A stretch of DNA of 64,000 nucleotides from Vicinamibacterales bacterium. GTDB taxonomy: Bacteria; Acidobacteriota; Vicinamibacteria; Vicinamibacterales; 2-12-FULL-66-21. The DNA is taken from the NCBI GenBank assembly GCA_035463475.1, contig DATHTE010000123.1, forward strand, positions 91,775 to 155,774, in the 5' to 3' direction. The notes beneath the pieces are model-generated. The model saw only the letters and a list, made by a program, of their open reading frames with translations. It had not been told where the DNA came from and ran no database searches. This document shows positions 21,784 to 53,284 of the stretch, in pieces; positions within the stretch are counted from its first letter, which is position 1, and every line of letters starts with the position of its first letter. The position numbers and the translations under genes were made by a program.

Positions 21784-22242
21784 GTGGAGATGCGCGAAGT
21801 GGCCAAGTCGATCCTCGGGCTCTCGTGGGCAGTGTCGCTGTTTGGCTTTCAGCAGCTGTCGAAGGCGATGACACCGGCGACGACCCAGCCGTGTGACGTG
21901 ACCGCGACGGAGGTCGATGAAGTGTCGCGCGCGGTGCAGAGTCGGCTCTCCGACTCCGCCGCGCAGCAGTTCCGCGCCGGCGACGAGTGGCAGCGCCGCA
22001 TGGTGGACATCATGTTCGACATGGCGTCGCTGCGGGCGGTCGAGCCGCGCAAGATGGTCGAGGTTCTCGACCCGCGGACGCTGATTGAGACTGCCGATCC
22101 GCGCGCGATGATCGAAACGAGCGTGACCGTGATCCAGAAGAGCATCGACACCGCCGTGAACGCCATGCGGCAGACCGCCGACACGGCCATGGACCTGACC
22201 AAGCGGGCCGTCGATTCGGTCAGGCCATCGGCGACAGCGTAG
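21784..22242 (+). CDS. Hypothetical protein (152 aa); stand-alone copy of the N-terminal module of the 24044 and 33420 proteins
   Basis: GTG at 21784 (AAAGG upstream). EVAKSILGLSWAVSLFGFQQLSKAMTP aligns with DLLKSTLTLPWAISMFGVQQLTNLVTP (24044 protein). ...WQRRMVDIMFDM aligns with ...MQRAMVDLMMF. Confidence 0.6.
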   Translation: MEMREVAKSILGLSWAVSLFGFQQLSKAMTPATTQPCDVTATEVDEVSRAVQSRLSDSAAQQFRAGDEWQRRMVDIMFDMASLRAVEPRKMVEVLDPRTLIETADPRAMIETSVTVIQKSIDTAVNAMRQTADTAMDLTKRAVDSVRPSATA

Positions 22243-22299: not shown

Positions 22300-24021
22300 A
22301 TGGAGACTGCGGTTCACCACGGCGGCTACGTGACGCGGCACCGTGCCGCGCTGGCTGCCGCGCGGCCGATTCTGCGGCGGCTGCCCCACATCCTCCGGGT
22401 GGTGATCGCTCACGGGATCGCGAATGTCGTCGCGTCCCGCCCCCGCCTGCGATGGCTCGCGCGCTGGGCGCCGCTCGCCCGGCTCACCGGTCCGGAGCGC
22501 TTCCGGCGCCTGTTCGAGGACCTCGGCGGGAGCTTCGTCAAGTTCGGGCAGATGCTCGCGCTCCAGCCCGACATCGTCTCCCTCGAGTACTGCGACGAGC
22601 TGTTCAACCTACTCGATCGCATGGCGCCGTTCCCCTACGAGTTCGTCGAGCAGGTCTTCCGGGAGGAGCTGGGCCAGTCACCCTCCGACCTCTTCGATCA
22701 CTTCGATCCCGTGCCGCTGGCGACCGCGTCAATCGGGCAGGTTCATGCCGCGGTCCTGCACGGGCGCAAGGTCGCCGTGAAGGTGCAGCGCCCGGGCGTC
22801 GAGGCCGACTTCGACGGCGACCTCCGCCTGCTCGTGCTCGCCATGCGGTTCATCCGGCGCCTGCAGGTGAGGTCGCTCTACTGGGTGCTCGATCCCGGCG
22901 GTGAGTTCATCTCCTGGACGCGCGAGGAGCTCGACTACCGACGCGAGGCGCGGTACGCCGAGCGGCTGCGGCGCAACGCGGAGTTCAACCCCCAGGAGCG
23001 TGTGCCGGCCATCGTATGGGAGCTGACGACCCGCCGCACGCTGGTGATGGAGTTCATGTCGGGGATGACCGTCCTCGACTACCTGCGCGCCCTCACGACC
23101 GGCGACGAGTGGACGACGTACCGGCTGCGAGCCGACGGGTTCGACCCGAACCTCTTCGCGCGGCACATCATCGACAACTTTCTCGGCGATGCATTTCAGT
23201 ACGGCGTCTTTCATGCCGACCTGCATCCTGCGAACCTTCTCGTGCTGCCGCAGAACGTGGTCGGGTACGTGGACTTCGGCATCACCGGCGTGCTGAGCCG
23301 CTACTCGCGGCGCCACCTGGTCGAGATGACGCTCGCCTACACGCGCGCGGACGTCCGCGGCATGGCCGACGCGTACTTCAAGCTCGTGACGTATCGATCC
23401 GATGCCGACCCCGATCTGTTCCGGCGGCTGCTGGCCGAGACGTCGCAGGACTGGTATGAAGAGGGCGAGGCGGAGACGGTCTTCAGGAAGAACTTCACGC
23501 TGGTGATGCTGGACTTCCTGACGCTGTCGCGCAAGGCGGGTATCGGGCCCGAGCGGGATGTGGTTAAATACATCCGCTCGACCATCGCGGCAGACGGGCT
23601 CATCACGCGGTTTGCGCCCGGGTTCAGCGTGGGACGCCACCTCGAGGACGTCTGCCAGCAATGGATCGCTCGCGAAGCGCGCCGAGTCGCGTTCAGCTAC
23701 AACACGTTGACGGCCCTCGTCGCCTCCGGCGGCCGGCTGATCGAAGACGGGCCCGCGCGCGCCGCCTCCGTGCTGCGGCGGGTCGCCGAGGGCGAAGCCC
23801 TCGGTCGCGTCGACATCACGACAATCGCCCGGCGTGACGAACGCGTGCGCAAGCGCACGATTCGGCTCGCGGGAATCGCCGTGGCGTTCACGGCGTTGCT
23901 CGAGCTCACGGGCGCGGCGCCGGAGCTGGGGCTGAATCTCTTTACCGTCGAAGCGGCACTCGTGGCGGGTGCGTTGCTCCTGCTCGCAGACTCTCTGAGA
24001 GAACTTGCTTTTGCCGGCTGA
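22300..24021 (+). CDS. ABC1/UbiB-family atypical protein kinase (canonical motifs), two C-terminal TM helices
   Basis: GGSFVKFGQMLALQPDIV (KxGQ motif), ASIGQVHAAVL.GRKVAVKVQRPG (catalytic Lys), FHADLHPANLLV, and YVDFGITG (DFG). GGAG lies upstream of ATG 22300. Confidence 0.9.
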   Translation: METAVHHGGYVTRHRAALAAARPILRRLPHILRVVIAHGIANVVASRPRLRWLARWAPLARLTGPERFRRLFEDLGGSFVKFGQMLALQPDIVSLEYCDELFNLLDRMAPFPYEFVEQVFREELGQSPSDLFDHFDPVPLATASIGQVHAAVLHGRKVAVKVQRPGVEADFDGDLRLLVLAMRFIRRLQVRSLYWVLDPGGEFISWTREELDYRREARYAERLRRNAEFNPQERVPAIVWELTTRRTLVMEFMSGMTVLDYLRALTTGDEWTTYRLRADGFDPNLFARHIIDNFLGDAFQYGVFHADLHPANLLVLPQNVVGYVDFGITGVLSRYSRRHLVEMTLAYTRADVRGMADAYFKLVTYRSDADPDLFRRLLAETSQDWYEEGEAETVFRKNFTLVMLDFLTLSRKAGIGPERDVVKYIRSTIAADGLITRFAPGFSVGRHLEDVCQQWIAREARRVAFSYNTLTALVASGGRLIEDGPARAASVLRRVAEGEALGRVDITTIARRDERVRKRTIRLAGIAVAFTALLELTGAAPELGLNLFTVEAALVAGALLLLADSLRELAFAG

Positions 24022-24043
24022 CCCTCGGCAGAAAGGCCCGGTC

Positions 24044-25429
24044 ATGGAAACCACGACGCAATCATCGACGTTTCGCGACCTCCTGAAGTCGACGTTGACC
24101 CTGCCCTGGGCGATTTCGATGTTTGGCGTCCAGCAGCTCACCAACCTCGTGACGCCGCCGCCGGCCGGGCGCGTGGCGGGCGCGACCTCCGCGCTCGACA
24201 CCGTCAGCGACGTGACCGCGAAACAGCTCGACGGCTGGCTGAAACAGACCTACCAGCTCGGCACCGGCATGCAGCGTGCGATGGTGGACCTCATGATGTT
24301 CCGCACGCCCGACATCGATCAGAGTACGCTCATGCGCATCGCCGCCGAGATGCAGGATGGCCCACTGTTCGAGGCGGTCGTGAAGTACGGGCTCCCGCCG
24401 GTCGGCTGGCTCGACTCGTGGCTCGTGTCGCGGCGCGACGCGCCGGCCGTCACGCAGGAGTTCACGAACAAGCTCTACATCATCTCCCTCGTGACCCACG
24501 TGCATTCCGAGCTCGGGCTCAGCTCGAAGACCGTCGACCCGCTCGGCGTGCTGGTCGACAAGGTGGCGGAAATGCCGACGTTTCCCCGCGTGTGGGCCAC
24601 CGAAGGGCTTGGCAACTGGTTTGGCGATCTGGCGATGGAGCGGGCGGCCGACGGCCCGGATCCCACTGGTCTGCTCACCGACCCGCAATACGACTCGCTC
24701 CCGGCGTGGAGCATGACGATGCTGCACGCAGGCATCGGCATGTCGTTCGGCAAGGCGATCCTCAAGAAGCTCGAGCCGACGAGCTCGCCGGAAACCATCC
24801 GGGGAGAGCTGGCCCGCTTCCTGAGGTTGTGTCGTGAATCGTCGCGTCCGGGATACGCCGGCGCCGCGCTCGAGTCGCTTGGCCTCGCGACCCGGTCGCT
24901 GTATCCAAACCTGCTGCCGGTCCTCGACCGCGAGATGCCGTACGTCGATCCCGATCTGCAAAGCTACTACTGGCACGGCGCTGGCCGCGCGATGTACTTC
25001 GAGCCGGCGGGCTGGCTGCCCTCGGTCAACGCGCCGTGGCGCGTCATCAGGCGGCTCGACGCGGAGACGCCGCACGACCTCGGTCGCAAGAACATCCTCT
25101 CTGGCATCGGGTGGGCGCTCTCGGTCGTCAACATGCGTCATCCGGTGGTGATGGAGACGTTCCTGCGCCATCACGCGGCGCTGGCGAGGACCGAGGACGC
25201 GTTCACCAACGGCGTCGTCTCGTCGCTGATGATGCGGTTCGACACGACGCGCGACGACGCGCACATCTCCCCCTACATTCGCTACGAACCGTCTGATCCG
25301 GAGGTCGCGTCGGCGTGGCGGACGCTGATTACCGAGCCGTGCGAGCACGCCCTGCGCGACACGTACGGCAACCTGCTGCGGACCAACTCGCTCGAGCAGC
25401 TGTTCCACTACCGCCCGGCGGGAAGCTAG
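24044..25429 (+). CDS. Hypothetical protein: shared N-module + DUF1702-like (enediyne UnbL-type) C-terminal domain
   Basis: ATG at 24044. The C-domain has MLHAGIGMSFG, GYAGAALESLGLA, SYYWHGAGRAMYF and GIGWALSVVN. This is the periodic HxGxG / aromatic-EGxG pattern I associate with DUF1702. It is paralogous to the 33420 protein. Confidence 0.65.
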   Translation: METTTQSSTFRDLLKSTLTLPWAISMFGVQQLTNLVTPPPAGRVAGATSALDTVSDVTAKQLDGWLKQTYQLGTGMQRAMVDLMMFRTPDIDQSTLMRIAAEMQDGPLFEAVVKYGLPPVGWLDSWLVSRRDAPAVTQEFTNKLYIISLVTHVHSELGLSSKTVDPLGVLVDKVAEMPTFPRVWATEGLGNWFGDLAMERAADGPDPTGLLTDPQYDSLPAWSMTMLHAGIGMSFGKAILKKLEPTSSPETIRGELARFLRLCRESSRPGYAGAALESLGLATRSLYPNLLPVLDREMPYVDPDLQSYYWHGAGRAMYFEPAGWLPSVNAPWRVIRRLDAETPHDLGRKNILSGIGWALSVVNMRHPVVMETFLRHHAALARTEDAFTNGVVSSLMMRFDTTRDDAHISPYIRYEPSDPEVASAWRTLITEPCEHALRDTYGNLLRTNSLEQLFHYRPAGS

Positions 25430-25445: not shown

Positions 25446-27029
25446 ATGGCCACGTCACTGGTAGCGCGCAGCCCCGCGTCCGGCCGCGACGGCCGGCGGA
25501 AGCAGGTCGAGACGGTACTCAACGCGCTCGGTCTCCCCGTTCCCGAGCGCCGCTCGCCGCCACCCGAGGGGCGCCTCGGGGCGGACGAGGACTACGGGCG
25601 CCGGCTGCGCGAGGCGCTCACCGATCTCGGCCCGGTCTTCGCCGGCTTCGGCCGGTACCTCGGGTCGCGCGCCGATCTGGCGCCGCGGCGCACGCGCGCC
25701 GAACTGGCGACGATCCCGGACGAGGGGCAGGCGCTGCCGTTCGCCTCGGTCGCGGCACTGGTGCGCGCGCAGCTCGGGGCGCGGCCCGAGCGGCTGTTCT
25801 TCGAGTTCCATCGGGATCCCGTCGCGGTCGGCTCGTGGACGCAGTCGCATCTGGCGTGGCTCGCCCCAGGGGTGCCGGCGCTGGTGACCATCGTCCGTCC
25901 CGATGCCGCCGACGAGCTCGATATCGACATCCCGCTGCTGCCTCTTCTCGCGCCGTGGATCGACGTGCCTGCCGGCCTTCTTGCCGCCGCGGTCGCGGAC
26001 TACGAGTTGACGGTGCGGCGACGCCTGGATCAGAAGCACCAGGCTGCCTCGCTGACCAGTCTCGCGGCCGACGCCCGCAGCGGCGGAGGATTCGACGCGC
26101 CTGCCTGCTACCGCGATCACTGCGCGCCGAACGTCCTGACGGTCGAGCGGCTCGTCGGAGAGCCCCTCGACGCGCAGCCGCGTGGGGCTGAGGCGCTGGC
26201 GCGCCGGGTAACGGCCGCCTGGCTGCGACAGGCCTTCGCCGGCAACGTGGTGCCCTATGACTTCGGGCCGCGCGACCTCGTCGTGATCGACGAGCGCCTT
26301 GTGCTCACGGGGGGCGCTCTCGAGCCCCACTCGTCGGTCGAACGTGCGCGCTTCGCGGCGTACCTGAGCGCCGTCGCCTCCGACGATCCCGACGCGGCCG
26401 CCAACTGGATTGTCGAGGGGGCCAGTCCATCTCCCGCCGTCGAGTCGAGGCTTCGGCGCCTGTTGCGGCAGGCGGTCCCGTTCCGCGAAGGCGAGTGGAG
26501 CGGCGATGATCGCCTCGTGCAGCACGTGCTCGTGCAGTGGCGTGTCGCGCGCAACGCGGGGTGGCCCGTCTCACCCCATCATCTCCACCTGTACCGCGGC
26601 CTCCAGGCGGTGGCGCAGATTGCGCATGACCTCGCGCCTGACGTGGACACGCTGCTCCGGGCGCTCGAGGACGAACGCCTGCGAATCGGCCTGTCGCAGG
26701 CGGGCGAGTTGCTCAGCCCGCGCTACGCCGTGGCGACCCTCGACCGCGCGATCCAGGAACTCGCCGATCTTCCACAGAAGTTCGATGACGTGCTGACGAT
26801 GGCGTCCCAGGGGCGATTGCGGATGAACCTGCAGGTACCCGAGGCGGAAGAGAACGAGCGCGTCCGCAACCGCACCGTGCTGCTCGTGACCACGCTGGTC
26901 GCCTTCGCGGCGGTCGCCACCATCGCGCGCCACCTTGCGCCCGCATTCGGCGTCGGCATCGAGCGCGCCGGCGCGATCATCCTGCTGCTGGTGGGCGGGT
27001 GGCTGCTGTTCGCCGCGTCCCGGTTGTGA
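25446..27029 (+). CDS. ABC1/UbiB-like pseudokinase (catalytic motifs degenerate), two C-terminal TM helices
   Basis: LGPVFAGFGRYLGSRADLAP replaces the KxGQ motif. ALVTIVRPD replaces VAVKVQRPG. PYDFGPRDLVV replaces HADLHPANLLV. No DFG is present. It has the same length and architecture as the 45925..47505 paralog. Confidence 0.75.
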   Translation: MATSLVARSPASGRDGRRKQVETVLNALGLPVPERRSPPPEGRLGADEDYGRRLREALTDLGPVFAGFGRYLGSRADLAPRRTRAELATIPDEGQALPFASVAALVRAQLGARPERLFFEFHRDPVAVGSWTQSHLAWLAPGVPALVTIVRPDAADELDIDIPLLPLLAPWIDVPAGLLAAAVADYELTVRRRLDQKHQAASLTSLAADARSGGGFDAPACYRDHCAPNVLTVERLVGEPLDAQPRGAEALARRVTAAWLRQAFAGNVVPYDFGPRDLVVIDERLVLTGGALEPHSSVERARFAAYLSAVASDDPDAAANWIVEGASPSPAVESRLRRLLRQAVPFREGEWSGDDRLVQHVLVQWRVARNAGWPVSPHHLHLYRGLQAVAQIAHDLAPDVDTLLRALEDERLRIGLSQAGELLSPRYAVATLDRAIQELADLPQKFDDVLTMASQGRLRMNLQVPEAEENERVRNRTVLLVTTLVAFAAVATIARHLAPAFGVGIERAGAIILLLVGGWLLFAASRL

Positions 27030-27031
27030 TC

Positions 27032-29515
27032 ATGATGCCCGGCGGGCCGCAGGCAGCCAGATCCGCGTACTTGTCGCTCGCGACGGGGGGCGGTGGAGAG
27101 TCGTCGCCCATTCTCTTCGCATCCAATCCGGTGGGGGACGCGCTGCTGGCGACCGGCATGATGGCGGTGGCCGGCGCGGCGACGATGGTCCCCGTCCTGC
27201 CCGTCCGCATTTCCGGGATCGCGGTCCGCGAGACGCTGCACCGCCTCGGCACCGAGGCGCTTCCGCCGACCCCGGAGCGCGGCGTGACCGCCGCCAACCG
27301 GCTGGGCGAAGCGCTCGGCACAATCGCGATGCGCTGGCTGGTCGCTCCCGAGGGGTTCGAGGCCACGCCGTCGGTGCCTCCACCCCACACCGAGCTGGAT
27401 TCGTCGCGGTCGCAGCGGTTCGTGATGCAGGACGGCGCCCTGCGCTTCCAGGACCGCACGCAGAGCGGCCTGCGCTTCTTCGGCGCCGGACGTACCTATC
27501 CCTCGAAGGGGAACGGAAACGGCCACCTCCTGTTCGCCGGCGCCGCGGTGGTCGTCGAGGGCCTCGGCCGGTTGAGGGGACTACGCGGCAGTCTCAGCGT
27601 CGCCGGCGAGATCTCCGGGCGATCGCTGGTGTCCCTGGTCGTCACGGGTCGCTTCGACGACGACGGGCCGCTCGAGATGGTCGAGCGGGTCGGCCTCATG
27701 ATCGACAGCGCGCCGGGCTGTCCGAACGCGACGGTGCTGGTGCTGGCGGGTGAGTCGAACGGCGGCTCGGCGATGGGCCAGATCGAGGAGCGCCTCCGCA
27801 TGGCGCGCATCGAAAACGACCTGGCGAACGCCACACAGCCACGCAGCGCCTTCCATGCCGGCGAGAACGTTGGGAGCGCGACCGGACCGTTGCGGTTCGA
27901 TCCGTCCGACCGCCGCTGCGCGATTCGCCTGATCGACGGCCGGCGCGAACTGACGTTCGGCGACGCCGCGGGGCAGCCGGTCGCGACGATCGTCGCAGAT
28001 GCCCTCGAGGGCACCACCTTTCGAGATCAGCACGCGGGCGAGCACGTGTCGCGCGTGATCGCGTACGGCCAGTTATCGGAGGGCACCGGCGCGCTGGCGG
28101 GCGCGGGGGGAATCCTGGCCATCGACACGGCGGTCTCGATCGACGCATCTGCCTCCAGCGTGTATACGCTGTGGCTGATCGACGAGCGAGGCCGGTTTCG
28201 CGCGCCGGCACCGGCGCCCGCCGCTGCGATCTCGCGCGCGAGCACGGCGCCCGGGCCGGCAGAGGAGCTCCAGTTCGTCGAGACGAGCGCCGCGTCGATC
28301 CTGCCCGCCGACGTCGCGATTCTCGCCCATGCCCAGCGGACGCTCGCGGACGGGGGCGATCTGAACCAGTGGCTCCAGGAGAAGAGTCGATCCGCCGACT
28401 ACCGAGAGCGGTTCGACGTCGTTCGGGAGCACACCTCCGACGACGACAGCTTCGGCTTCTTCGACGTGGCGCCGGTCGGCGGCACCCAGATGCCGGTGAT
28501 GGGCATCGTCCAGGAGATGTTCTACGACCGTCAGAAGCTGGGAAGCCCGGAGCCGATACGCGAGCAGCTCGCGGAGTTCGTCCTGCGCTATTTCATGCGT
28601 GTGTGTCACGCGGGCGAACCCGAAGCCGTCCCGGCCAGGCCCGGGGCGCCCGACACGGCGCTGCAGCGCGCCATGAGCTGGCTGCCCGGAGAGGCGCAGC
28701 GCAGCGCCGGAGCGGGGTACCAGCAGCTGTATTACGGGCTCGCCGAGTCGGGACAGACCGGGAAGTTCACGCACGACGAGCGTCCGGCGATCGTCGACCT
28801 GCGGGAGATCGGATCGAAGTACGAGTGGATCCTGCTCAAGGGAGACACGCTCTCCTTCGATCTTCCGTTCGTGCCGTTCGGGGCGGAGGTCACCACGCCG
28901 CAGGCGCCGGCAAAGCAATCCACGTATCTGCTGATGGCGCCCGCCTTCGTGGTCAACGCCCACGACCCTGAGCCGGGTGTGCTCGGCCACTACGGCTTCG
29001 GTTACGCGTTCGTGCCGTACGCCTCCGGCGGCCCGGGCCTGCTCGCCTACGGCCCCGGCCGGTTCCGCGCGGCGGTCCAGGCGGTGAGCTTCAAGCTGAT
29101 GGCGAACGGCGAGATCCGCGCCCGCACGATGTTCGTGGTCGCCCGGCCGGATAAAATCGCGGCGGTCGACGTGGATCCAATCGGGTGGAGCGTGCAGCTG
29201 GCGGACCTCGTGACGTTCCGGATGGCGTCGCGGCTCATGGGGCCCGTGCTCGCGATGGCCGACCGCCTTCCGCTGCACGCCCGGGATTTCGATCCGGTTG
29301 CGGCCTACATCTGGATGGCCAATACAATGACCGCCGGCATGGCCGAGAACTACCTCGGCATTTCGAAGGCCGCGCTCGAGAAGCGTATGCTGTTCCAGCA
29401 CCTGCGGTCGCACCAGGAGATGTTGCATCGATCACTGCGGATCTGGCGCATGGTGCCGGACTGGACCGCGCACGCGAAACTGCCGGACTTCTGCCATCGG
29501 GGCATGGGATGTTGA
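27032..29515 (+). CDS. Large hypothetical protein (827 aa); the C-terminal roughly 330 aa are homologous to the 52265..53284 protein
   Basis: ATG at 27032, 2 nt after the upstream stop. High GC3 throughout. C-terminal REIGSKYEWILL, GFGYAFVPYA and YGPGRFRAAVQAVSFKLMANGEIRARTMFVVARPDKI align with REIGTKYQWSLL, AIGYPFIDYA and FGPGKFDWAVKTYSFLLRDNNEVRCDMEFVAGARAKKV. Confidence 0.7.
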   Translation: MMPGGPQAARSAYLSLATGGGGESSPILFASNPVGDALLATGMMAVAGAATMVPVLPVRISGIAVRETLHRLGTEALPPTPERGVTAANRLGEALGTIAMRWLVAPEGFEATPSVPPPHTELDSSRSQRFVMQDGALRFQDRTQSGLRFFGAGRTYPSKGNGNGHLLFAGAAVVVEGLGRLRGLRGSLSVAGEISGRSLVSLVVTGRFDDDGPLEMVERVGLMIDSAPGCPNATVLVLAGESNGGSAMGQIEERLRMARIENDLANATQPRSAFHAGENVGSATGPLRFDPSDRRCAIRLIDGRRELTFGDAAGQPVATIVADALEGTTFRDQHAGEHVSRVIAYGQLSEGTGALAGAGGILAIDTAVSIDASASSVYTLWLIDERGRFRAPAPAPAAAISRASTAPGPAEELQFVETSAASILPADVAILAHAQRTLADGGDLNQWLQEKSRSADYRERFDVVREHTSDDDSFGFFDVAPVGGTQMPVMGIVQEMFYDRQKLGSPEPIREQLAEFVLRYFMRVCHAGEPEAVPARPGAPDTALQRAMSWLPGEAQRSAGAGYQQLYYGLAESGQTGKFTHDERPAIVDLREIGSKYEWILLKGDTLSFDLPFVPFGAEVTTPQAPAKQSTYLLMAPAFVVNAHDPEPGVLGHYGFGYAFVPYASGGPGLLAYGPGRFRAAVQAVSFKLMANGEIRARTMFVVARPDKIAAVDVDPIGWSVQLADLVTFRMASRLMGPVLAMADRLPLHARDFDPVAAYIWMANTMTAGMAENYLGISKAALEKRMLFQHLRSHQEMLHRSLRIWRMVPDWTAHAKLPDFCHRGMGC

Positions 29516-31308
29516 CGAGCAAGCCGTACGACGTGGACGTGGTGATCGTGGGCGCGGGGCTTGCTGGCCTCTCGCTCGCGCGCCAGCTGCTGATGGCCGA
29601 CGACGCCGTCACGATTCTTCAACTCGACAAGCGGCAGCAGGTTCCGCCCACCGGACAGAAGGTGGGCGAGGCCACGGTCCAGGTGAGCGGCTACTACTGG
29701 TCGAAAGTGCTCGATCTGGAGGAGCACCTGCTCCGCGAGCACTACATGAAGTACAACCTGCGATTCATCTGGAAGACCGCCGGACTCGATCCCTCGCGGA
29801 TCGAGAGCTACAGCCAGTCGTACATCCGGCGCATCTCCAACGTCGCGAGCTACCAGCTGAATCGCAACAAGCTCGAGGCGGAGCTGCTGCGGCGCAATCT
29901 CGAAGCCGCCGATCGGTACGAGTTCCACAATCACGCGCTGGAGCTGAAGATCGATCTCGATCGTGACGGCGGCCCGCACCGGGTGTCGTACATCCGCGAA
30001 GGTGAGCGGCGTTCCCTCACCGCGCGGTGGGTGGTGGACTGCGCGGGACGCGCCCACGTGCTGCAGAAGCAGCTCGGGCTCCAGAAGTCGAACAGCATCC
30101 GCCACGGCGCGTCGTTCCTGTGGGTGGACGGCCTGCTCAACTACGAGGCCCTGACCGATTCGACACCCCGTCAGATCCGGCTGAACCCGCAGCGCGCGTA
30201 CACCGGCCACCTGCCCTTCTGGCTGGCGACGAACCACTTTCTCGAGGAAGGGCTGTGGTTCTGGGTGATTCCGCTGCAGGGCATCACGAGCCTGGGCCTC
30301 GTCTACGACCGGCGCGTCATTGCTCCCGAGGTGGTGAACCACCCGAAGCGCCTGGTGGAGTGGATCTGCGAGCACTTCCCGGCGTTCGAACGGGACCTGC
30401 CTCGCCGGAAGATCCTCCACGCGGCCAGCTATCGCGACATCTCGTTCGACGCGGTGCAGACGATCGATCGCCATCGCTGGGCGATGGCGGGCGAGGCGGG
30501 GCGCTGGTCGGACCCGCTGTACAGCCCCGGCGGCGACGTGATAGCCATCTACAACACGCTGGTGTGCGATTCGATCCTGACACGCGACCAGGCCGAGCTC
30601 GACGCGAAGGTGCCGCTGTACGAGGAACTGGAGCGCGCCGTCTACGCGGCCTATCTGCCCAGCTTCCAGATCGGCTACGACTGCCTCGGAGACCAGGAAG
30701 CGCACTCGCTGAAGTACGTCTGGGAGCTGACCATCTACTTCGCGTTCTACGTCTTCCCGTTCATCAACGATCTCTTCACCGATCGGCGGTTCCTGGCGGC
30801 GTACCTGCGGACGTTCACGAGGCTGGGCCGTGTGAACCTCGCGGTGCAGGGCTTGCTGAACCGCTACTATCACTGGAAGAAGGAGAACCGCGAGCCGGTC
30901 ACGTCGCCGATCTTCTTCGAGCTCTTTGACGTGCCGGGGATCGCGGTTGCCGAAGGGACGTTTTACAGGGTGGGCGTGTCGGTCGAAGAAGCGCGGCCGA
31001 TCCTGGAGGACCAGCTGGCCAACGCGATGATGCTCGCGCGCTACCTTGCCGCGCACGTGTATGCGATGGTGCTCGACGAGCCTGCGCTGGTGTGGAACCG
31101 ATCGTTCGTTTCGAGCCTCGACCTCGAAACGCTCTCCTTTGATCCGGTCAGGATGGCCGCCGACTACGCGCCGCACGCCGGCTGCGGCGAGAGGTACGCC
31201 TGGCCGGCCGGCTGGGACCCTGAGGTCGCGTTCTGCTTCAAGACGCCGCGGCGCGTCCCGGTTGTGGCTCTCGCGAGCTCGGCCACCGCGGTCTCGGAGG
31301 GGTTGTGA
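29509..31308 (+). CDS. Flavin-dependent halogenase-like FAD enzyme (tryptophan-halogenase family)
   Basis: ATG at 29509 within ATGTTGA, overlapping the upstream stop. VVIVGAGLAGLSLA (GxGxxG), TGQKVGEATV (K-x-GE[AS] with candidate catalytic Lys), EEGLWFWVIPLQG (WxWxIP), GRWSDPLYSPGGD (DPxxSxG). Confidence 0.75.
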   Translation: MLTSKPYDVDVVIVGAGLAGLSLARQLLMADDAVTILQLDKRQQVPPTGQKVGEATVQVSGYYWSKVLDLEEHLLREHYMKYNLRFIWKTAGLDPSRIESYSQSYIRRISNVASYQLNRNKLEAELLRRNLEAADRYEFHNHALELKIDLDRDGGPHRVSYIREGERRSLTARWVVDCAGRAHVLQKQLGLQKSNSIRHGASFLWVDGLLNYEALTDSTPRQIRLNPQRAYTGHLPFWLATNHFLEEGLWFWVIPLQGITSLGLVYDRRVIAPEVVNHPKRLVEWICEHFPAFERDLPRRKILHAASYRDISFDAVQTIDRHRWAMAGEAGRWSDPLYSPGGDVIAIYNTLVCDSILTRDQAELDAKVPLYEELERAVYAAYLPSFQIGYDCLGDQEAHSLKYVWELTIYFAFYVFPFINDLFTDRRFLAAYLRTFTRLGRVNLAVQGLLNRYYHWKKENREPVTSPIFFELFDVPGIAVAEGTFYRVGVSVEEARPILEDQLANAMMLARYLAAHVYAMVLDEPALVWNRSFVSSLDLETLSFDPVRMAADYAPHAGCGERYAWPAGWDPEVAFCFKTPRRVPVVALASSATAVSEGL

Positions 31309-32738: not shown

Positions 32739-33385
32739 ACGTGGAGGGGAGCCGACGTCACGGTGCCGCCTTCGACCGCCTGGCTGACCTCGCGGCGGTC
32801 CGGACGGCGACGATTGCGAAGGTCACGCCGCTGTCGCAGGCGCAGCTGGATTTCTCTCCGCGCCCGGGCCGATGGTCGATTGGCGAGATTGCCGATCACC
32901 TGCGGCTGTCCGAGCTGCTCTGGCGCGGCGAGATCAGCCGTCTCGTCGATCTGGCGCGCGAGGGCAAGCCCACGTACCTCAAGCGCTCTTTCGCGGACAT
33001 CAACGTGTCGCCGGCGCTGGTCCCCGACGCGGTCCTCTCGATGCTGGAGGTGCCGCTCGGGATCATGTCCCGGTTCATGCCCGACGCCATCGTCGGCATG
33101 ATGACCGAGCTGCCAATCCTGCCGATGCGCAACCCGGACGCGGCCACGCCGCGGGCCCGGCGTCCCGCCGCCGAGCTGATCGCTGAGCTGAACGCCGCGA
33201 TCGCTCAGACCGAACGGCTGATCGAGGCCAATGCCGGCCTCGACTTCGATCGGATGATCTCCGCGCATCCGCTGATGGGGTCCAACAATGTTCCGCAGAT
33301 GCTGACGATTGTCGCGCGGCACGAGCGGCGCCACCACGTGCAGATGGATCGCGTTCGAGCGGATTCGGGTTTCCCCCGCCTGTAG
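32735..33385 (+). CDS. DinB-fold (DinB_2) metal-dependent protein
   Basis: GTG at 32735 (GTGA overlap). RWSIGEIADHLRLSE (His 1), then HPLMG...MLTIVARHERRHHVQM (C-terminal His cluster), in a four-helix-bundle-sized protein. Confidence 0.8.
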   Translation: MNVEGSRRHGAAFDRLADLAAVRTATIAKVTPLSQAQLDFSPRPGRWSIGEIADHLRLSELLWRGEISRLVDLAREGKPTYLKRSFADINVSPALVPDAVLSMLEVPLGIMSRFMPDAIVGMMTELPILPMRNPDAATPRARRPAAELIAELNAAIAQTERLIEANAGLDFDRMISAHPLMGSNNVPQMLTIVARHERRHHVQMDRVRADSGFPRL

Positions 33386-33419
33386 GGGCCCTTATAATTC
33401 GAGTCATACACCCGGAGCT

Positions 33420-34670
33420 ATGACAGTGACCCAGGCTACCGAACGGACCAATCCCCTCACGGACATGATGCACACCACCGGCGACCTGATGAAATCGGTC
33501 GGCCGGTTCTCCCTCGCCATGTCGCTGCTCGCGGCGCGTCAGGCCATGGCGATCGTGTCGCGCCCGAAAGCGGCGTCCGGCGAGCTCGACGACGTGACGC
33601 GGGCCGCGGGCGGTCACCTGTCGGGCGCCGTCCGCACCGCGTTCGCGATTGGCGCGAACGTGCAGAGCGGCCTCGTCGACGCCGCGTTCGACGCCGTCGG
33701 CATGCGCCCGAAGGGGCAGCAGCCGTCGGGCGACACGACCGCGCTCTCGGTGCCGATGACGACCGGCGTGCCGCGTCGCGTCGCCGGCGTGCGGACGGTC
33801 GCGTCGGGCGCCGTGGATCGCGGGGTGCCGCAGTCCGAGCTCGTGCAGCGGCTGACCGAGTACCAGACGGAGTCGACCGGCCGCCCGGTGGAGCGCGCCA
33901 AGGCGGTCACCGGCCTGTGGAAGTCGGAAGGGCTGTCCACGTCGGTCGGCAAGCACCTTCTTCCCGAGAACTCGCTGGCAGACCCGAACTTCCCGCGCGA
34001 GGTCGTGCCGATCGCGCACGTGGGGTTCGGCTCCGGATCGACCGAGGATCTGGTGTTCGACGTCGCGAAGCTGAACGGGCTGTTCGCGGCGCGCTGCGCC
34101 CCCGCGTACATCGGTTTCGCGTACGAAGGGATCGGCGCCATCCTGCGCATCTATGAGCGCGGCTTCTTCAAGCTGATGAGCGGCGCGCTCGGTCTCATTC
34201 GCCTCGACGCGCCCGACGGGCCGAACGCGGAGGGGCTGTTCGCCGACTATCTCAGTCAGTACCCTGAAGACCGGCAGTGGCTGATCGTTCACGGGTACGG
34301 TCGCCTCGTCGCCTTCAGCAACATGAACATCTACAAGGCGATCGAAGAGATCACGACGTATCCCGCCGATCGCGTGGACCCCGCCGTGCGCGGCGCCGCG
34401 TTTGCGTTCGCCATGATGAACAGCGCCGACCTGCCCAGGGTCCTCGACGAGAGCGCCATTCCGTTCGACCGATCCATCCGCGTGTCGTTCCAGAACGGCC
34501 TGGTGAACAGTGTGGTGTTCTTCGACTGGTTCCTGCCGGGACTGCTCGAAGACTGGCGGCCGCAGGGCGCGCTCGAAGGGGAATTGATCGATCACGCGCG
34601 CCTCGAGGCGGCCGCCGCGCGCGAACGCGGGTATCCGCTCGCGATGCAGCTCGAACACCCGCGCACGTAG
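33420..34670 (+). CDS. Hypothetical protein: shared N-module + DUF1702-like domain (second paralog)
   Basis: ATG at 33420 with GGAG upstream. N-terminal GDLMKSVGRFSLAMSLLAARQAM...VQSGLVDAAFD. C-domain IAHVGFGSG, GFAYEGIGAILRIYE, WLIVHGYGRLVAF, GAAFAFAMMN. Confidence 0.65.
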   Translation: MTVTQATERTNPLTDMMHTTGDLMKSVGRFSLAMSLLAARQAMAIVSRPKAASGELDDVTRAAGGHLSGAVRTAFAIGANVQSGLVDAAFDAVGMRPKGQQPSGDTTALSVPMTTGVPRRVAGVRTVASGAVDRGVPQSELVQRLTEYQTESTGRPVERAKAVTGLWKSEGLSTSVGKHLLPENSLADPNFPREVVPIAHVGFGSGSTEDLVFDVAKLNGLFAARCAPAYIGFAYEGIGAILRIYERGFFKLMSGALGLIRLDAPDGPNAEGLFADYLSQYPEDRQWLIVHGYGRLVAFSNMNIYKAIEEITTYPADRVDPAVRGAAFAFAMMNSADLPRVLDESAIPFDRSIRVSFQNGLVNSVVFFDWFLPGLLEDWRPQGALEGELIDHARLEAAAARERGYPLAMQLEHPRT

Positions 34671-49348: not shown

Positions 49349-49921
49349 ATGGACACGTCCACTGGACAGGCGATCGGGAGTATCGTCCCGGAGTTGAACC
49401 TGCCGGCCGTCTACACCGGCGTCGCGCGCTCGCTCGACGTGTGCCTGGCCGGGCGTCGCGGCGGTGTGGTCCTGTTCTGGTCGAGCGTCTGCACGCACTG
49501 CGTCCGTTACGACGCGTATTTCAACGGGCTCGAGGCGGCGCATCCGGAGCTGGCGTTCTACGCGGTCGCGACGCGGCACAGCGAAACCCTCGACGAGATC
49601 CGCAAGGCCCTGTCGGATCGCGGCCTGCGGTTTCCGCTCTATCACAGTCCCGACGGCGCGGCCGCCCGGGCGTACTTCGCGCAGCAGACGCCGCGCGTCT
49701 ACCTCGTCGATCCGCTCCGGACATTGCGGTATCGAGGCGCGGTGGACAACTTCAAGTATCCCGACGACCCTGAGTACGAGCCGTACCTGGAACGGGCGAT
49801 TGCGAGCTTCCTGGCGGGCGAAGCAATCGAGCGTCCCGAGACCAGCAGCTTCGGCTGCGCGGTCCGGTCGGTGTACTACGATCTGCCGAAGATGATCGAG
49901 CGCCCATCCACCCATGGCTGA
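49349..49921 (+). CDS. Thioredoxin-fold (redoxin/TlpA-like) protein, paralog of 44327..44896
   Basis: ATG at 49349. VVLFWSSVCTHCVRY (CxxC), TPRVYLVD, TSSFGCAVRSVYY. Confidence 0.8.
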   Translation: MDTSTGQAIGSIVPELNLPAVYTGVARSLDVCLAGRRGGVVLFWSSVCTHCVRYDAYFNGLEAAHPELAFYAVATRHSETLDEIRKALSDRGLRFPLYHSPDGAAARAYFAQQTPRVYLVDPLRTLRYRGAVDNFKYPDDPEYEPYLERAIASFLAGEAIERPETSSFGCAVRSVYYDLPKMIERPSTHG

Positions 49922-52268
49922 TTCCCTGGCCGACCCGCGCAGCCTGCCGCCCCGCGTCTTCGAGCTGGGGCTGCACACGTTCAGCCGGGCGATTGCGGCA
50001 ACGCAGTCGTGGCTCGGCACGATCGACGGCGCTCCGCCGAGTCACGTCACGATCCGTCCGGCCGTGGACGGCCCGGACGACCTTGACCGCGCCACCTCGG
50101 ATTTCGCAAACCGGATGGCGAGAATCCTGCGGTACGCCACGCTGACCGGCGCCAGCGCGCCCGGCGTGGCCGACGAGGTCGCCGACGCCTTCCGCGCAAG
50201 CTTCGCCCGCGTCGCCCCGCAGGACCTTCGCGGCCTGATCACGTTTCCGATTCGCCTGCCGCTGTCGTTCGGGTCGCTGTTCGCGCAGGAACTGGTGCGC
50301 GGGCTGCACGCGGTCGAGATCGTCGGCGCCACGCGGGCGCCGTCGTTCCTGATCGAGCTGGTCGAGGCGTTTCTCGATTACCCGGTCTTCCAGGCGCTGC
50401 AGTACAAGGACGAGATCGATCGATACCGCGAGCGGCTGCGCCGGGTCCCGGGCGACGCGACCGCGCGCCTGCAGCTTGGCCGGACGTACATCAAGTGCGG
50501 GCTCTACGCGGAGGCGCTCGACGAGCTCGCGCTCGCGGTGGAGGACCCGCGCACGCACGCGCAGGCGCTCTACGAGCGGGCGGTCGCGGGGACGCGGTCG
50601 GGACGCTATCACCAGGCGATCCGGGACGGTGTACGGGCGATAGAGGCTGGGGCATCCGAGCTGCGCGCGCAGCACTGGGTCTGGCTCGCGTCGCAGAAGC
50701 TGGGCGGATACCCGGACGACACGCCCCCCGAACGCCGCGTCGCGATGAAGACAGGACTGGCGCCCACGCGGCTCCGGTACCGCGACGTCGCTCGAGAAAT
50801 CGGGCTCGACAAGACGTCGGGCGGCCGCGGCACGGCGATCTTCGACATCGACGGCGACGGTGAGCTCGACGTGATCATCTCCGCCGTCAGCGCCGGCTGC
50901 AGCGTGTACCGCAACAACGGCGACGGCACGTTCCGGGACGCATCGGTCGCGTCGGGCCTCGACGCGTGCGTCAACTCCTGGGGGATCAGCGCGGGGGACT
51001 ACGATAACGATGGCCGCATCGACCTGTTCGTGACCCGTCTCGGTTTCTTCGACGGCGAGGCGGCGCTGTACCGCAACAACGGCGACGGCACCTTCACCGA
51101 CGTCACGCGCGAGGCAGGCGTCCAGGGCTGGGCGCCGGGGTTCACGGCGGGCTGGGTGGACTTCGATCTCGACGGCCGCCTGGACCTCTTCGTTCCCAGC
51201 AACCTTGGAGGCGTGTTCCACCGGCCCAAGCGCCACCGGCTGTTCCACAACAACGGCGATGGAACGTTCACCGACGTCACGCTGGACGCGCGTTTGGCCC
51301 CGTGGGGGCCCACCGTGGGCGCAACGTGGGGAGACTACGACAACGACGGGTATCCCGACCTGTTTCTGAGCAGCGCGTTCGGCCGCTCGCAGCTGTTTCA
51401 CAACAACGGAGACGGGACCTTCACCGACGTCAGCGCCGCTGCGGGGATCAATCGGCCGTGTTTCGGCATGGTCGCGTTCTTCTGCGACTACGACAACGAC
51501 GGCTGGCTCGACCTCGTCCAGTACCTGTGGTGCAGCAACGAGGACATGATCCTGAGCCTGCGACATGGCGCGCCGTCATCCTCCGGGCAGCCGCTGCGCG
51601 TCTACCACAACAACCGTGACGGCACCTTCACGCTGGCGAACGACGAACTCGGCATCGTGGAGTGCTGGGGCTCGATGAGCGGCAACGCTGCCGACCTCGA
51701 CAACGACGGCCGCCTCGATCTACTGCTCGGCAACGGCGGCCCGCAGATGGACCGCAGCGATCCGCTCGTGGTGCTCGCGAACGACGGCGGGCGGTTCCGG
51801 AACATCACGTTCGCGGCCGGCCTGCCCGCGGCCGGCAAAGCGCACGGCGCGAACGCGGCCGACCTGCACGGCGACGGGCGGATGAGCCTCATCGCCGCCT
51901 CGGGCGGCATGTATCCCGGCGAACTGCTGACCACCTCTGTCTTCCGGCCCGAGGAACTGACGGGGAATTACCTGAACGTGCGGCTCACGGGTGTCACGTG
52001 CAACCGCGACGCGATCGGCGCGCGACTGAAGTTGACGACGGCCGGACGGGAGCAGCACCTCGTGATCAACGGCGGCAGCCAGTTTGGCTGCCTGCCATTC
52101 GAGCAGCATTTCGGGCTCGGATCGGAGCGCGGCGCCGGCCGGCTCGAAATCTGGTGGCCTGGAGGACCGCGCGAGGTTCTCGAGCGTCTTCCGGCCAACG
52201 CGACCGTGACGATCACACAGGGCGAAGGCCGCTGGACCGTCGTCAAAAGGGGACCGAATCCACTATGA
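49914..52268 (+). CDS. Signal-less TPR + FG-GAP/VCBS + ASPIC/UnbV (CRTAC1-type) protein, 784 aa (paralog of 41959..44319)
   Basis: 8-nt overlap with the upstream Trx-like gene. LQLGRTYIKCGLYAEALDEL (TPR), repeated DYDNDG..DL...LYRNNGDGTFTDV units, C-terminal NRDAIGARLKLTTAG...FGLG...IWWPGG. Confidence 0.85.
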   Translation: MADSLADPRSLPPRVFELGLHTFSRAIAATQSWLGTIDGAPPSHVTIRPAVDGPDDLDRATSDFANRMARILRYATLTGASAPGVADEVADAFRASFARVAPQDLRGLITFPIRLPLSFGSLFAQELVRGLHAVEIVGATRAPSFLIELVEAFLDYPVFQALQYKDEIDRYRERLRRVPGDATARLQLGRTYIKCGLYAEALDELALAVEDPRTHAQALYERAVAGTRSGRYHQAIRDGVRAIEAGASELRAQHWVWLASQKLGGYPDDTPPERRVAMKTGLAPTRLRYRDVAREIGLDKTSGGRGTAIFDIDGDGELDVIISAVSAGCSVYRNNGDGTFRDASVASGLDACVNSWGISAGDYDNDGRIDLFVTRLGFFDGEAALYRNNGDGTFTDVTREAGVQGWAPGFTAGWVDFDLDGRLDLFVPSNLGGVFHRPKRHRLFHNNGDGTFTDVTLDARLAPWGPTVGATWGDYDNDGYPDLFLSSAFGRSQLFHNNGDGTFTDVSAAAGINRPCFGMVAFFCDYDNDGWLDLVQYLWCSNEDMILSLRHGAPSSSGQPLRVYHNNRDGTFTLANDELGIVECWGSMSGNAADLDNDGRLDLLLGNGGPQMDRSDPLVVLANDGGRFRNITFAAGLPAAGKAHGANAADLHGDGRMSLIAASGGMYPGELLTTSVFRPEELTGNYLNVRLTGVTCNRDAIGARLKLTTAGREQHLVINGGSQFGCLPFEQHFGLGSERGAGRLEIWWPGGPREVLERLPANATVTITQGEGRWTVVKRGPNPL

Positions 52269-53284
52269 ACACCACAACATCTGCTCGTCCGATCATTCCC
52301 GACAACTTCACGGCCCTCGAGAAATCGCTCGTCGAGAAGAGCGAGCAGGCAATCGTGAAGGGTCGTGAACTGGAGCACTGGTCGCGCGATCCCCGCCGCC
52401 GCATCCGGCAGTTCCCGCTGTCGCTCAATCGTCCGTATGCGCTGCCGAACCGTGCCTGGGGATACTTCGCGGACGTCTGCATCGAAGGACGGACGCTGGC
52501 GGCCCTGGGCTGCCAGCAGCAGGTCGAGTTCGGCCGAATCACCGGTCCGAACCCCGAGGAGCGGCTGCTGGAGTACGTCCTGGGGCGTTTCCTGAGCACC
52601 TCGGCGTGGATGTATCCGGACGGCAACGCGGGCGGCTTCACGATTCAACAGATGCTGTACTGCGATGCCGAGCGGCGGTGCGGCCGCTATCCGGCCGACC
52701 AGCTGACCGTCGCGCGGGACTGGCGTGAGATCGGAACGAAATACCAGTGGTCGTTGCTCACCATCTTCCTGCACGACTTCGTCATTCATCTCGGTCCGAT
52801 GAAGACCATCCTCAAGGAAGCGGTGGCGGTGGTACAGCACCCGGATTTCGTCCACATCGTGCCGGGCCCGAAGCCAGGCTACAAACTCGAAGTGGCGATC
52901 GGGTACCCGTTCATTGATTACGCTCCGGTCCCGAACTATTTCGGCTTCGGTCCCGGCAAGTTCGACTGGGCGGTCAAGACCTACTCGTTCCTGCTGCGCG
53001 ACAACAACGAGGTCCGGTGCGACATGGAGTTCGTCGCCGGCGCCCGGGCGAAAAAGGTGTTCGATTTCGGCTCGTACATCCCGTGCCCGCTCTACGGGAC
53101 GTCGGACCTGATGGAGTTCCTCACACTCGGGGTGTACAAATCACAACCGTTCCGCGACTATATGGACCTGCAGATGGCGGTCGAGCACGCCCACGTCCAC
53201 CAGGCGTTGATGGAAGGCAGTTCGAAGATTTTCGCCGCGTGGGAGAAGACCGCGTCCCTCGAGCCGGCGATGGCAGGTGTGTAA
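52265..53284 (+). CDS. Hypothetical protein (339 aa) homologous to the C-terminal domain of the 827-aa protein
   Basis: ATGA overlap at 52265-52268. See the alignment blocks listed for 27032..29515. No family recognised. Confidence 0.7.
   Translation: MNTTTSARPIIPDNFTALEKSLVEKSEQAIVKGRELEHWSRDPRRRIRQFPLSLNRPYALPNRAWGYFADVCIEGRTLAALGCQQQVEFGRITGPNPEERLLEYVLGRFLSTSAWMYPDGNAGGFTIQQMLYCDAERRCGRYPADQLTVARDWREIGTKYQWSLLTIFLHDFVIHLGPMKTILKEAVAVVQHPDFVHIVPGPKPGYKLEVAIGYPFIDYAPVPNYFGFGPGKFDWAVKTYSFLLRDNNEVRCDMEFVAGARAKKVFDFGSYIPCPLYGTSDLMEFLTLGVYKSQPFRDYMDLQMAVEHAHVHQALMEGSSKIFAAWEKTASLEPAMAGV

Follow-up and report, generated by a model that had tools for sequence, protein, structure and literature searches.

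The window analysed here is a stretch of 64,000 nucleotides (nt) from the genome of a Vicinamibacterales bacterium (Acidobacteriota; GenBank assembly GCA_035463475.1, contig DATHTE010000123.1, positions 91,775 to 155,774 of the forward strand). It encodes two regions which, judged by their sequences, belong to a single protein family that had no model before. One copy, the long form, makes up the C-terminal half of a two-part protein of 827 amino acids (aa). The other, the short form, is a protein of its own. The family has no name and is labelled the 'REIGxKY' domain here. Since the window is rich in G+C (68%) and contains many long spurious open reading frames (ORFs), genes were chosen by their third-position G+C content (GC3). 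The main features are given below, together with a third copy found elsewhere in the same genome (G000).

27032..29515, + strand: long-copy gene, encoding the 827-aa protein (N-terminal all-beta region and C-terminal long-form domain); an ORF starting with the ATG at 27032
27032..28231, + strand: N-terminal region of the 827-aa protein, about 400 residues, predicted to be all-beta (AlphaFold2 strands, Foldseek)
28283..29512, + strand: long-form copy of the probable START-like domain, residues ~418-827 (BLASTP against the short copy, stand-alone homologues, profile match)
52265..53284, + strand: short-form, stand-alone copy of the probable START-like domain, 339 aa (ORF, AlphaFold2, Foldseek)
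Contig C48, 9596-10954 (L012:9596-10954), + strand: third copy, long form, 452 aa (profile search of the genome)

The stop codon of the 827-aa gene occupies positions 29513-29515, and an identical protein is present in the protein collection. GC3 is 0.83-0.88 for both window genes, with the short copy at 0.83.

Homology and extent of the copies

The original prediction held that the window contains an unrecognised domain of about 330 aa twice, once at the end of the 827-aa protein and once as the stand-alone protein. The two regions do share a homologous domain. Composition-adjusted BLASTP between the two proteins gives E=5e-21, with 26% identity and 42% positives. The query in this comparison was P0001, the long ORF extended to the GTG at 26999 (838 aa). 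Its residues 429-720 (418-709 of the 827-aa protein) align with residues 5-265 of the short protein, a span of about 300 residues in which all five motif blocks quoted earlier are collinear. A joint profile of both subfamilies, one of the profiles built in this analysis (A1 and A3), finds the long copy in the genome at E=1.3e-163, the short copy at E=2.3e-140 and the third copy on contig C48 at E=1.6e-141. All three cover positions ~4-393 of the 395 in the profile.

The extent of the domain in the long protein differs from what had been proposed. The protein length of 827 aa, with its start at ATG 27032, stands. The domain itself starts near position 28283, about 200 nt upstream of the suggested 28500, and is about 410 aa long, compared with about 335 aa in the short copy. 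It is taken to span residues ~418-827 (nt ~28283-29512) because, in the multiple alignment of both subfamilies, homology runs on to the C-terminus, through the C-terminal helices with their conserved H-x3-H. The stand-alone homologues P0194-P0198 span exactly residues 414-824 of the 827-aa protein. The number of copies has also been revised, from two to three in the genome; the copy on C48 is 47% identical to the C-terminus of the 827-aa protein.

Absence from sequence libraries

Neither window protein has a match to the domain in Pfam or NCBIfam at E≤1. When all 71 aligned family members (alignment A1) were searched against Pfam with hmmscan at E≤10, scattered noise and no consistent family was obtained. 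Among ten diverse representatives, Pfam recognised only the additional domains to which some members are fused. PDB sequences searched with a single protein and with three profiles gave nothing for the domain. Literature searches on the cluster, combining UbiB/ABC1 with Acidobacteria and covering DUF1702, UnbL and UnbV, found nothing relevant. The family is undescribed in the sequence databases and in the literature searched.

Family size and distribution

At a clustering level of 50% identity, no fewer than 453 clusters match the joint profile (E≤1e-3), 212 of them at E≤1e-30; the family size is a lower bound. Most often the domain makes up a protein of its own, ~405-445 aa long. For the short protein there are 244 homologues of about 330 aa with 59-86% identity, every one of them named 'hypothetical'. 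The 827-aa protein has 76, mostly of 770-890 aa.

The domain behaves as a mobile module, found both alone and in fusions. In P0199 it is N-terminal to an alpha/beta hydrolase, while in P0323 and P0319 it is C-terminal to DinB_2 and to SHD1, respectively. In fusions of the 827-aa type it is C-terminal to the all-beta region of about 400 residues, which resembles dirigent barrels.

In collections with one genome per species, the family is found in the Acidobacteriota (Vicinamibacterales, Bryobacterales, Terriglobia, Thermoanaerobaculia and Pyrinomonadaceae) and beyond them in Latescibacterota, Zixibacteria and one deltaproteobacterial metagenome-assembled genome (MAG). Its distribution is patchy: it occurs in 6 of 301 sampled Acidobacteriota genomes, and carriers often have two or three copies.

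In a maximum-likelihood tree of the domain, a single deep clade unites the short forms, among them the fusions to DinB_2 and SHD1. Within the long forms, the barrel-fused 827-aa type makes up a derived clade, with the C48 copy close by. The window copies fall on the two deepest branches of the tree, and therefore reflect an ancient split and not a recent duplication.

Conserved positions across the family (P0003 numbering) include the aromatic residues W39, W162, W326, Y214, F242 and F256. Several polar residues are also conserved: Q129 (91%), D152 (90%) and H308 (86%), the last being present in every one of the 71 sequences that represent the two window subfamilies. Conservation of H312, D171 and E185 is only 51-64% family-wide.

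Predicted fold

AlphaFold2, given an alignment of the two subfamilies, models the short copy with a predicted local distance difference test score (pLDDT) of 90.2 and a predicted template-modelling score (pTM) of 0.88. DSSP assigns to this model a helix at residues 17-41, strands at 47-51, 62-73 and 76-91, a second helix at 97-112, further strands between 114 and 259 (six major and three minor), and long C-terminal helices at 277-286 and 293-337. This order of elements corresponds to the START/helix-grip topology. The predicted structures of both copies show the helix-grip arrangement of the START/Bet v 1-like (SRPBCC) superfamily.

The 20 best matches of the short-copy model in a Foldseek search of the PDB are all START/StARkin lipid carriers. 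At the top are CERT (E=1e-6, prob 1.00), a Xanthomonas START protein, STARD3 and the Bombyx carotenoid-binding protein; PCTP is at rank 25. Weaker matches include STARD6, PR-10/Bet v 1, Lam4, Ups1 and aromatase/cyclase (ARO/CYC). More than 20 START structures are found at E=1e-6 to 1e-3 with prob 0.97-1.00, but their template-modelling (TM) scores are 0.25-0.48 and root-mean-square deviations 8-13 Å. The domain therefore appears as a much enlarged and distorted relative of START, not as a typical member.

For the full-length 827-aa protein, AlphaFold2 gives a pLDDT of 84.5 and a pTM of 0.56. Its C-terminal domain shows the same order of elements as the short copy, with additional loops at 530-552 and 605-630, which are disordered in the model, and additional C-terminal helices. 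The domain probably belongs to the START-like superfamily, and at fold level the models describe a new, enlarged variant of it. The earlier statement that the domain cannot be assigned to any family holds for Pfam, NCBIfam and PDB sequences and gives way in part, at the level of fold only, where a well-known domain, START, provides the top structural matches of the short-copy model.

Canonical START (PF01852) is nearly absent from Acidobacteriota, being present in 1 of 151 genomes. In the sole PF01852 protein found (L069:1417-2124, - strand), a hydrophobic segment at the N-terminus resembles a signal peptide.

The N-terminal half of the 827-aa protein

DSSP strands run over residues ~12-385 of the AlphaFold2 model, with pLDDT mostly above 90, and this half probably forms two barrels. 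Three dirigent structures, 8th2, 6ooc and 4rev, are the sole high-probability Foldseek matches of the full-length model (prob 0.93-0.99, E ~1e-2, TM to target 0.43-0.55). An hhalign signal (P=1.2e-3) faintly suggests that the region is internally duplicated. At other loci the same all-beta unit is found as a separate protein or in tandem (L049, L064, L068).

Residues 37-56 (nt 27140-27200, + strand) form a conserved segment which is rich in Ala, Gly and Val and moderately hydrophobic, with a Kyte-Doolittle maximum of 1.84 at residues 38-56. It could be a membrane-associating segment. The same segment was the source of four weak matches to BMC-shell proteins (E 0.45-1.9, residues 32-106) when the profile of the 827-aa family was searched against the PDB. 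These matches were rejected as compositional, given the residue content of the stretch, a model there that does not have the BMC fold, and no BMC structure in Foldseek.

Neighbouring genes

Both copies are packed start-on-stop with their neighbours, and all three junctions are as first described. The adjoining genes are as follows.

25446..27029, + strand: degenerate ABC1/UbiB-family protein, upstream of the long copy (Pfam ABC1, E=7.4e-19)
29509..31308, + strand: halogenase-like FAD monooxygenase, downstream of the long copy (Pfam Trp_halogenase, FAD_binding_3)
49914..52268, + strand: TPR and FG-GAP/UnbV_ASPIC (CRTAC1-like) protein, upstream of the short copy (Pfam)

The TGA of the ABC1 gene (27027-27029) is separated by 2 nt (tc) from ATG 27032 of the 827-aa gene. 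The ATG of the halogenase-like gene (29509) overlaps the end of the 827-aa gene, with its TGA at 29513-29515, by 7 nt. The TPR-CRTAC1 gene is joined to the short copy by an ATGA stop/start overlap at 52265-52268. On contig C48, the third copy lies directly upstream of an OEP / HlyD-type MFP / AcrB-type RND efflux operon and overlaps its start.

Conservation of these neighbourhoods was surveyed for 70 copies (45 long, 25 short) in 63 loci. Neighbours were found by tblastn, with the window proteins and the proteins of the first loci as queries, and then counted. Directly downstream of the long copies there is a patatin in 16 of 45 cases and a halogenase-like flavoenzyme in 6. The adjacency seen in the window, with the halogenase-like gene next to the long form, recurs in L008, L034, L037, L043, L048 and L057. 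Directly upstream are the all-beta N-terminal unit, fused or separate (11/45), and the unknown protein of the type encoded at 24005 in the window (7/45). Of the 45 long copies, 27 have a 24005-type protein within 8 kb, 22 a patatin, 16 the small N-module protein, 13 a degenerate ABC1, 13 a DinB and 12 an RPE65-type gene.

For the 25 short copies, ABC1 genes occur within 8 kb in seven cases and redoxin in ten; UbiB/ABC1 pairs recur near copies of the domain. A CRTAC1-like gene adjoins 13 short copies, five times upstream and co-directional, as in the window, and eight times convergent. Other short forms come after a set of PapA-type condensation, ACP, fatty-acyl-AMP ligase (FAAL) and SDR genes, or after a DinB_2 gene.

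The fused form follows a KS / HMGR-like / CrtI-like / ACP / LPLAT operon in the window and in L008, L039 and L045-L047. Loci L034, L037 and L057 start at the LPLAT gene, and the part of the operon upstream of it lies outside them. A convergent MaoC hotdog-fold gene adjoins copies in the window, L039 and L045-L047. DinB_2 genes directly precede the L007 short copy and long copies at L052 and L060, and one is also found within the window operon. FadL, MaoC, the PapA-type condensation/ACP/FAAL/SDR genes and an RND efflux operon are likewise recurrent near copies.

The original prediction also saw in the domain a link that holds both parts of the window's supercluster together. This idea is weakened. 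In genomes other than this one the short- and long-form modules are more than 500 kb apart: in the MAGs CAVQFC01 and CAVUZL01 they lie on separate contigs of about 1 Mb, far from contig ends (L013/L039, L017/L046). The adjacency seen in the window is therefore not conserved. What does hold is that the two modules co-occur in the same genomes and share partners, namely the UbiB/ABC1 pairs and the 24005-type protein.

Several observations concern individual neighbours. The 24005-type proteins are an unmodelled family and the most frequent neighbour of the long form; a gene of this type lies divergently upstream of the C48 copy. The description 'DUF1702/UnbL-like', tried for 24005-25429 and 33309-34670 (+ strand), was dropped as an assignment, as neither has a Pfam match at E≤1, and serves as a label only. 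The small N-module protein of the window (21784-22242, + strand) matches Phasin_2 (PF09361) at E=1.1e-3, below the Pfam cut-off. The match hints that this may be an amphipathic protein which coats or tags hydrophobic inclusions. Residues ~15-45 of the stand-alone long forms P0195, P0196 and P0198 carry a motif, …LEAxWAxPRxLGFGxDAxVSRMV…, which by eye resembles the N-module starts …LSWAVSLFGFQQL… and …LPWAISMFGVQQL…. BLAST found no significant match between the N-termini of stand-alone long forms and the cluster N-module.

Some loci stand out by their arrangement. L004, L052, L060 and L061 have two or three long-form copies, in tandem in the last three, and in L004, L052 and L060 the copies alternate with patatin genes. 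These loci suggest local expansions of carrier/lipase pairs. L007 has two adjacent ArsA/Get3-type ATPase genes (459-2416, + strand); at a distance of 1.6 kb follow an ABC1 pair, a patatin that binds cNMP and a copy of the short form. In L033 and L057 (MAGs CAVOHK01 and CAWBJQ01), matches to nearly all cluster genes, including the domain, are split over several frames, which suggests either indel errors in those assemblies or pseudogenisation of the whole locus.

Proposed function

The best reading of the domain, held at roughly even odds, is a cytoplasmic carrier of a hydrophobic ligand that serves the enzymes encoded next to it. It draws on the START carriers at the top of the Foldseek matches, the lipid-centred neighbourhoods, the fusions, the aromatic-rich core and the lack of an export signal in the short form, in which a hydropathy scan of the 339 aa found no signal peptide, membrane span or other hydrophobic segment. 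A long, curved antiparallel beta-sheet and the long C-terminal helix would enclose a putative pocket for a hydrophobic molecule. As a soluble carrier, the domain would bind a greasy substrate or product and pass it to, or receive it from, the enzymes of adjacent genes. The ligand would most likely be a lipid or polyene that the cluster produces and remodels. The client of the short form would be the redoxin/CRTAC1-like pair. For the long form, fused here to two presumed small-molecule-binding beta-barrels, the clients would be the halogenase-like flavoenzyme and the RPE65-type oxygenase and, elsewhere, patatin lipases. ATPases of the UbiB/ABC1 type encoded nearby may supply the lipid from the membrane, in a manner comparable to Coq8/UbiB and the START protein Coq10/RatA.

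A number of results weigh against the START placement or the carrier function. The hmmscan of 71 members at E≤10 found no SRPBCC family (PF01852, PF03364, PF10604, PF00407, PF08327 and others). Comparison of A1 and A3 by hhalign with a self-assembled alignment of 56 bacterial START sequences gave a probability of 0.1%, and two profiles searched against PDB sequences gave no relevant match. TM scores against START structures reach only 0.25-0.37 (by query) and 0.32-0.48 (by target), with the large deviations given above, and no START structure is among the top 50 Foldseek matches of the full-length long-copy model. The assignment is one of predicted structures, and the pocket is putative. Some long-form genes stand alone among housekeeping genes (L038), so no fixed partner is needed. 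Finally, the conservation of Q129, D152 and H308, the H-x3-H on the last helix and the high identity of the short forms across orders are no less compatible with an enzyme than with a passive carrier.

An enzyme with the helix-grip fold, such as a cyclase, dehydratase, isomerase, or metal-dependent lyase or hydrolase, is the main alternative, possible if somewhat doubtful. It would act on the lipid or polyene of the cluster, or on fatty acids released by patatin, with Q129, D152, Y214 and H308/H312 as a putative active site. The polar residues and the H-x3-H just named speak for it, as does the 59-86% identity of short forms across acidobacterial orders, which is unusually high. The domain occupies operon positions typical for pathway enzymes, and the SRPBCC superfamily does include enzymes; the ARO/CYC protein BexL (4xrw) is a weak Foldseek match (E=1.1e-2, prob 0.66, TM 0.25-0.27). 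Yet the best structural matches are carriers, H312 and the acidic residues D171 and E185 are conserved only in part, and no enzyme family profile in Pfam or NCBIfam was matched. Fusion to hydrolase and DinB catalytic domains is also more typical of a substrate-binding accessory module. Much less probable is a structural or scaffolding role in a hydrophobic body or a patch of membrane, in which the domain would organise the UbiB-type ATPases and enzymes in the way of a lipid-droplet coat without binding single lipids. The Phasin_2 match of the small helical protein, the N-terminal extensions that resemble the shared tag of the cluster by eye, and the set of ABC1 kinases, CCD-type oxygenase, acyltransferase and patatin, which recalls the plastoglobule proteome (PMC5161054), point in this direction. 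However, the domain is predicted to be compact and globular, without the amphipathic-helix character of a coat, the short form lacks both the tag and any hydrophobic segment, and the phasin match is below threshold and in a different protein. The low pairwise identity of 26% and the many spurious frames of so G+C-rich a window might also raise the suspicion of a chance or compositional similarity, or of one copy being a decaying, functionless duplicate. This is refuted by the composition-adjusted BLASTP, by the single profile that matches both copies (on the order of E≤1e-140), by the many full-length orthologues and GC3 of 0.83-0.88 of both copies, and by the high pLDDT of both models.

The carrier reading can be taken a step further, to a proposal that is rather unlikely as it stands: the family may be the dedicated lipid hand-off partner of paired UbiB/ABC1-type ATPases in an undescribed bacterial 'synthome' or lipid-body system. 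Such a system might be a prokaryotic counterpart of the coenzyme Q (CoQ) synthome or of plastoglobules, in which lipids extracted from the membrane would travel from one soluble enzyme to another through a series of binding domains. Its other parts could include a phasin-like tag protein, barrels like those of dirigent proteins and allene-oxide cyclase (AOC), patatin lipases, a CCD/RPE65-type oxygenase, the halogenase-like flavoenzyme and redoxin/CRTAC1-like pairs. The short and long subfamilies would then serve different steps of one pathway.

Comparison with known systems

START lipid-transfer domains. The domain resembles the eukaryote-type START domains (PF01852) of CERT/STARD11, STARD3, PCTP/STARD2 and the Bombyx carotenoid-binding protein, and the bacterial START protein 3qsz of Xanthomonas, in its predicted order of elements, in its lipid-centred genomic context and in the best Foldseek matches of the short copy. 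Unlike START domains, which have ~210-230 aa, it has 335-410 aa, with additional strands and a helical C-terminal extension, and it is linked to them by low TM scores only, with no sequence or profile similarity found by Pfam at E≤1, the 71-member hmmscan or hhalign.

Acyl-CoA thioesterases. ACOT11/STARD14 and ACOT12/STARD15 are fusions of hotdog and START domains. Similarly, the domain is fused to or lies beside lipid hydrolases (P0199, the patatins) and a MaoC hotdog-fold gene. The partners are otherwise different, and the order of fusion is the opposite, the domain being N-terminal to the hydrolase in P0199.

Dirigent and allene-oxide-cyclase barrels. Dirigent-type barrels, like START domains, bind hydrophobic small molecules. 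The likeness to these eight-stranded barrels, drawn from Foldseek matches listed for the full-length model as a whole, would concern only the N-terminal half of that protein. E values are only ~1e-2, however, and the Pfam Dirigent model is at noise level (one member, E=0.066).

Coenzyme Q chaperones. The START proteins Coq10/RatA are ubiquinone chaperones, and COQ8 is an ATPase that delivers insoluble intermediates (PMC11541779; PMC13418538; bioRxiv 10.64898/2026.05.04.722385). Here too, a predicted START-fold protein is found near a UbiB/ABC1 ATPase, and a gene resembling FAD monooxygenases follows the long copy. Neither of the window proteins (E≤1) nor any of the 71 members (E≤10) matches PF03364, though, and apart from the ABC1-family proteins no ubi/coq biosynthetic gene is among the annotated ORFs of the window. 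The domain is about twice the size, and partners such as patatin, the RPE65-type oxygenase and the CRTAC1-like propellers have no counterpart in the Coq/Ubi system. The likeness is one of mechanism, by analogy, and not of membership.

Significance

This is a large and well-conserved family that is invisible to sequence searches of Pfam, NCBIfam and the PDB, so that every member is annotated as 'hypothetical'. A Pfam or NCBIfam model of it would improve the annotation of many MAGs.

The START-like placement yields a testable function, that of a hydrophobic-ligand carrier, for a recurrent part of an uncharacterised lipid gene cluster which occurs in soil Acidobacteriota, Latescibacterota and Zixibacteria. 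The cluster may also offer a bacterial setting in which to test the hand-off of lipids from UbiB/ABC1 ATPases to soluble proteins, which is now studied mainly in the mitochondrial CoQ system. The main value of the finding lies in the gain for annotation and in the handle it gives on an uncharacterised acidobacterial lipid system.

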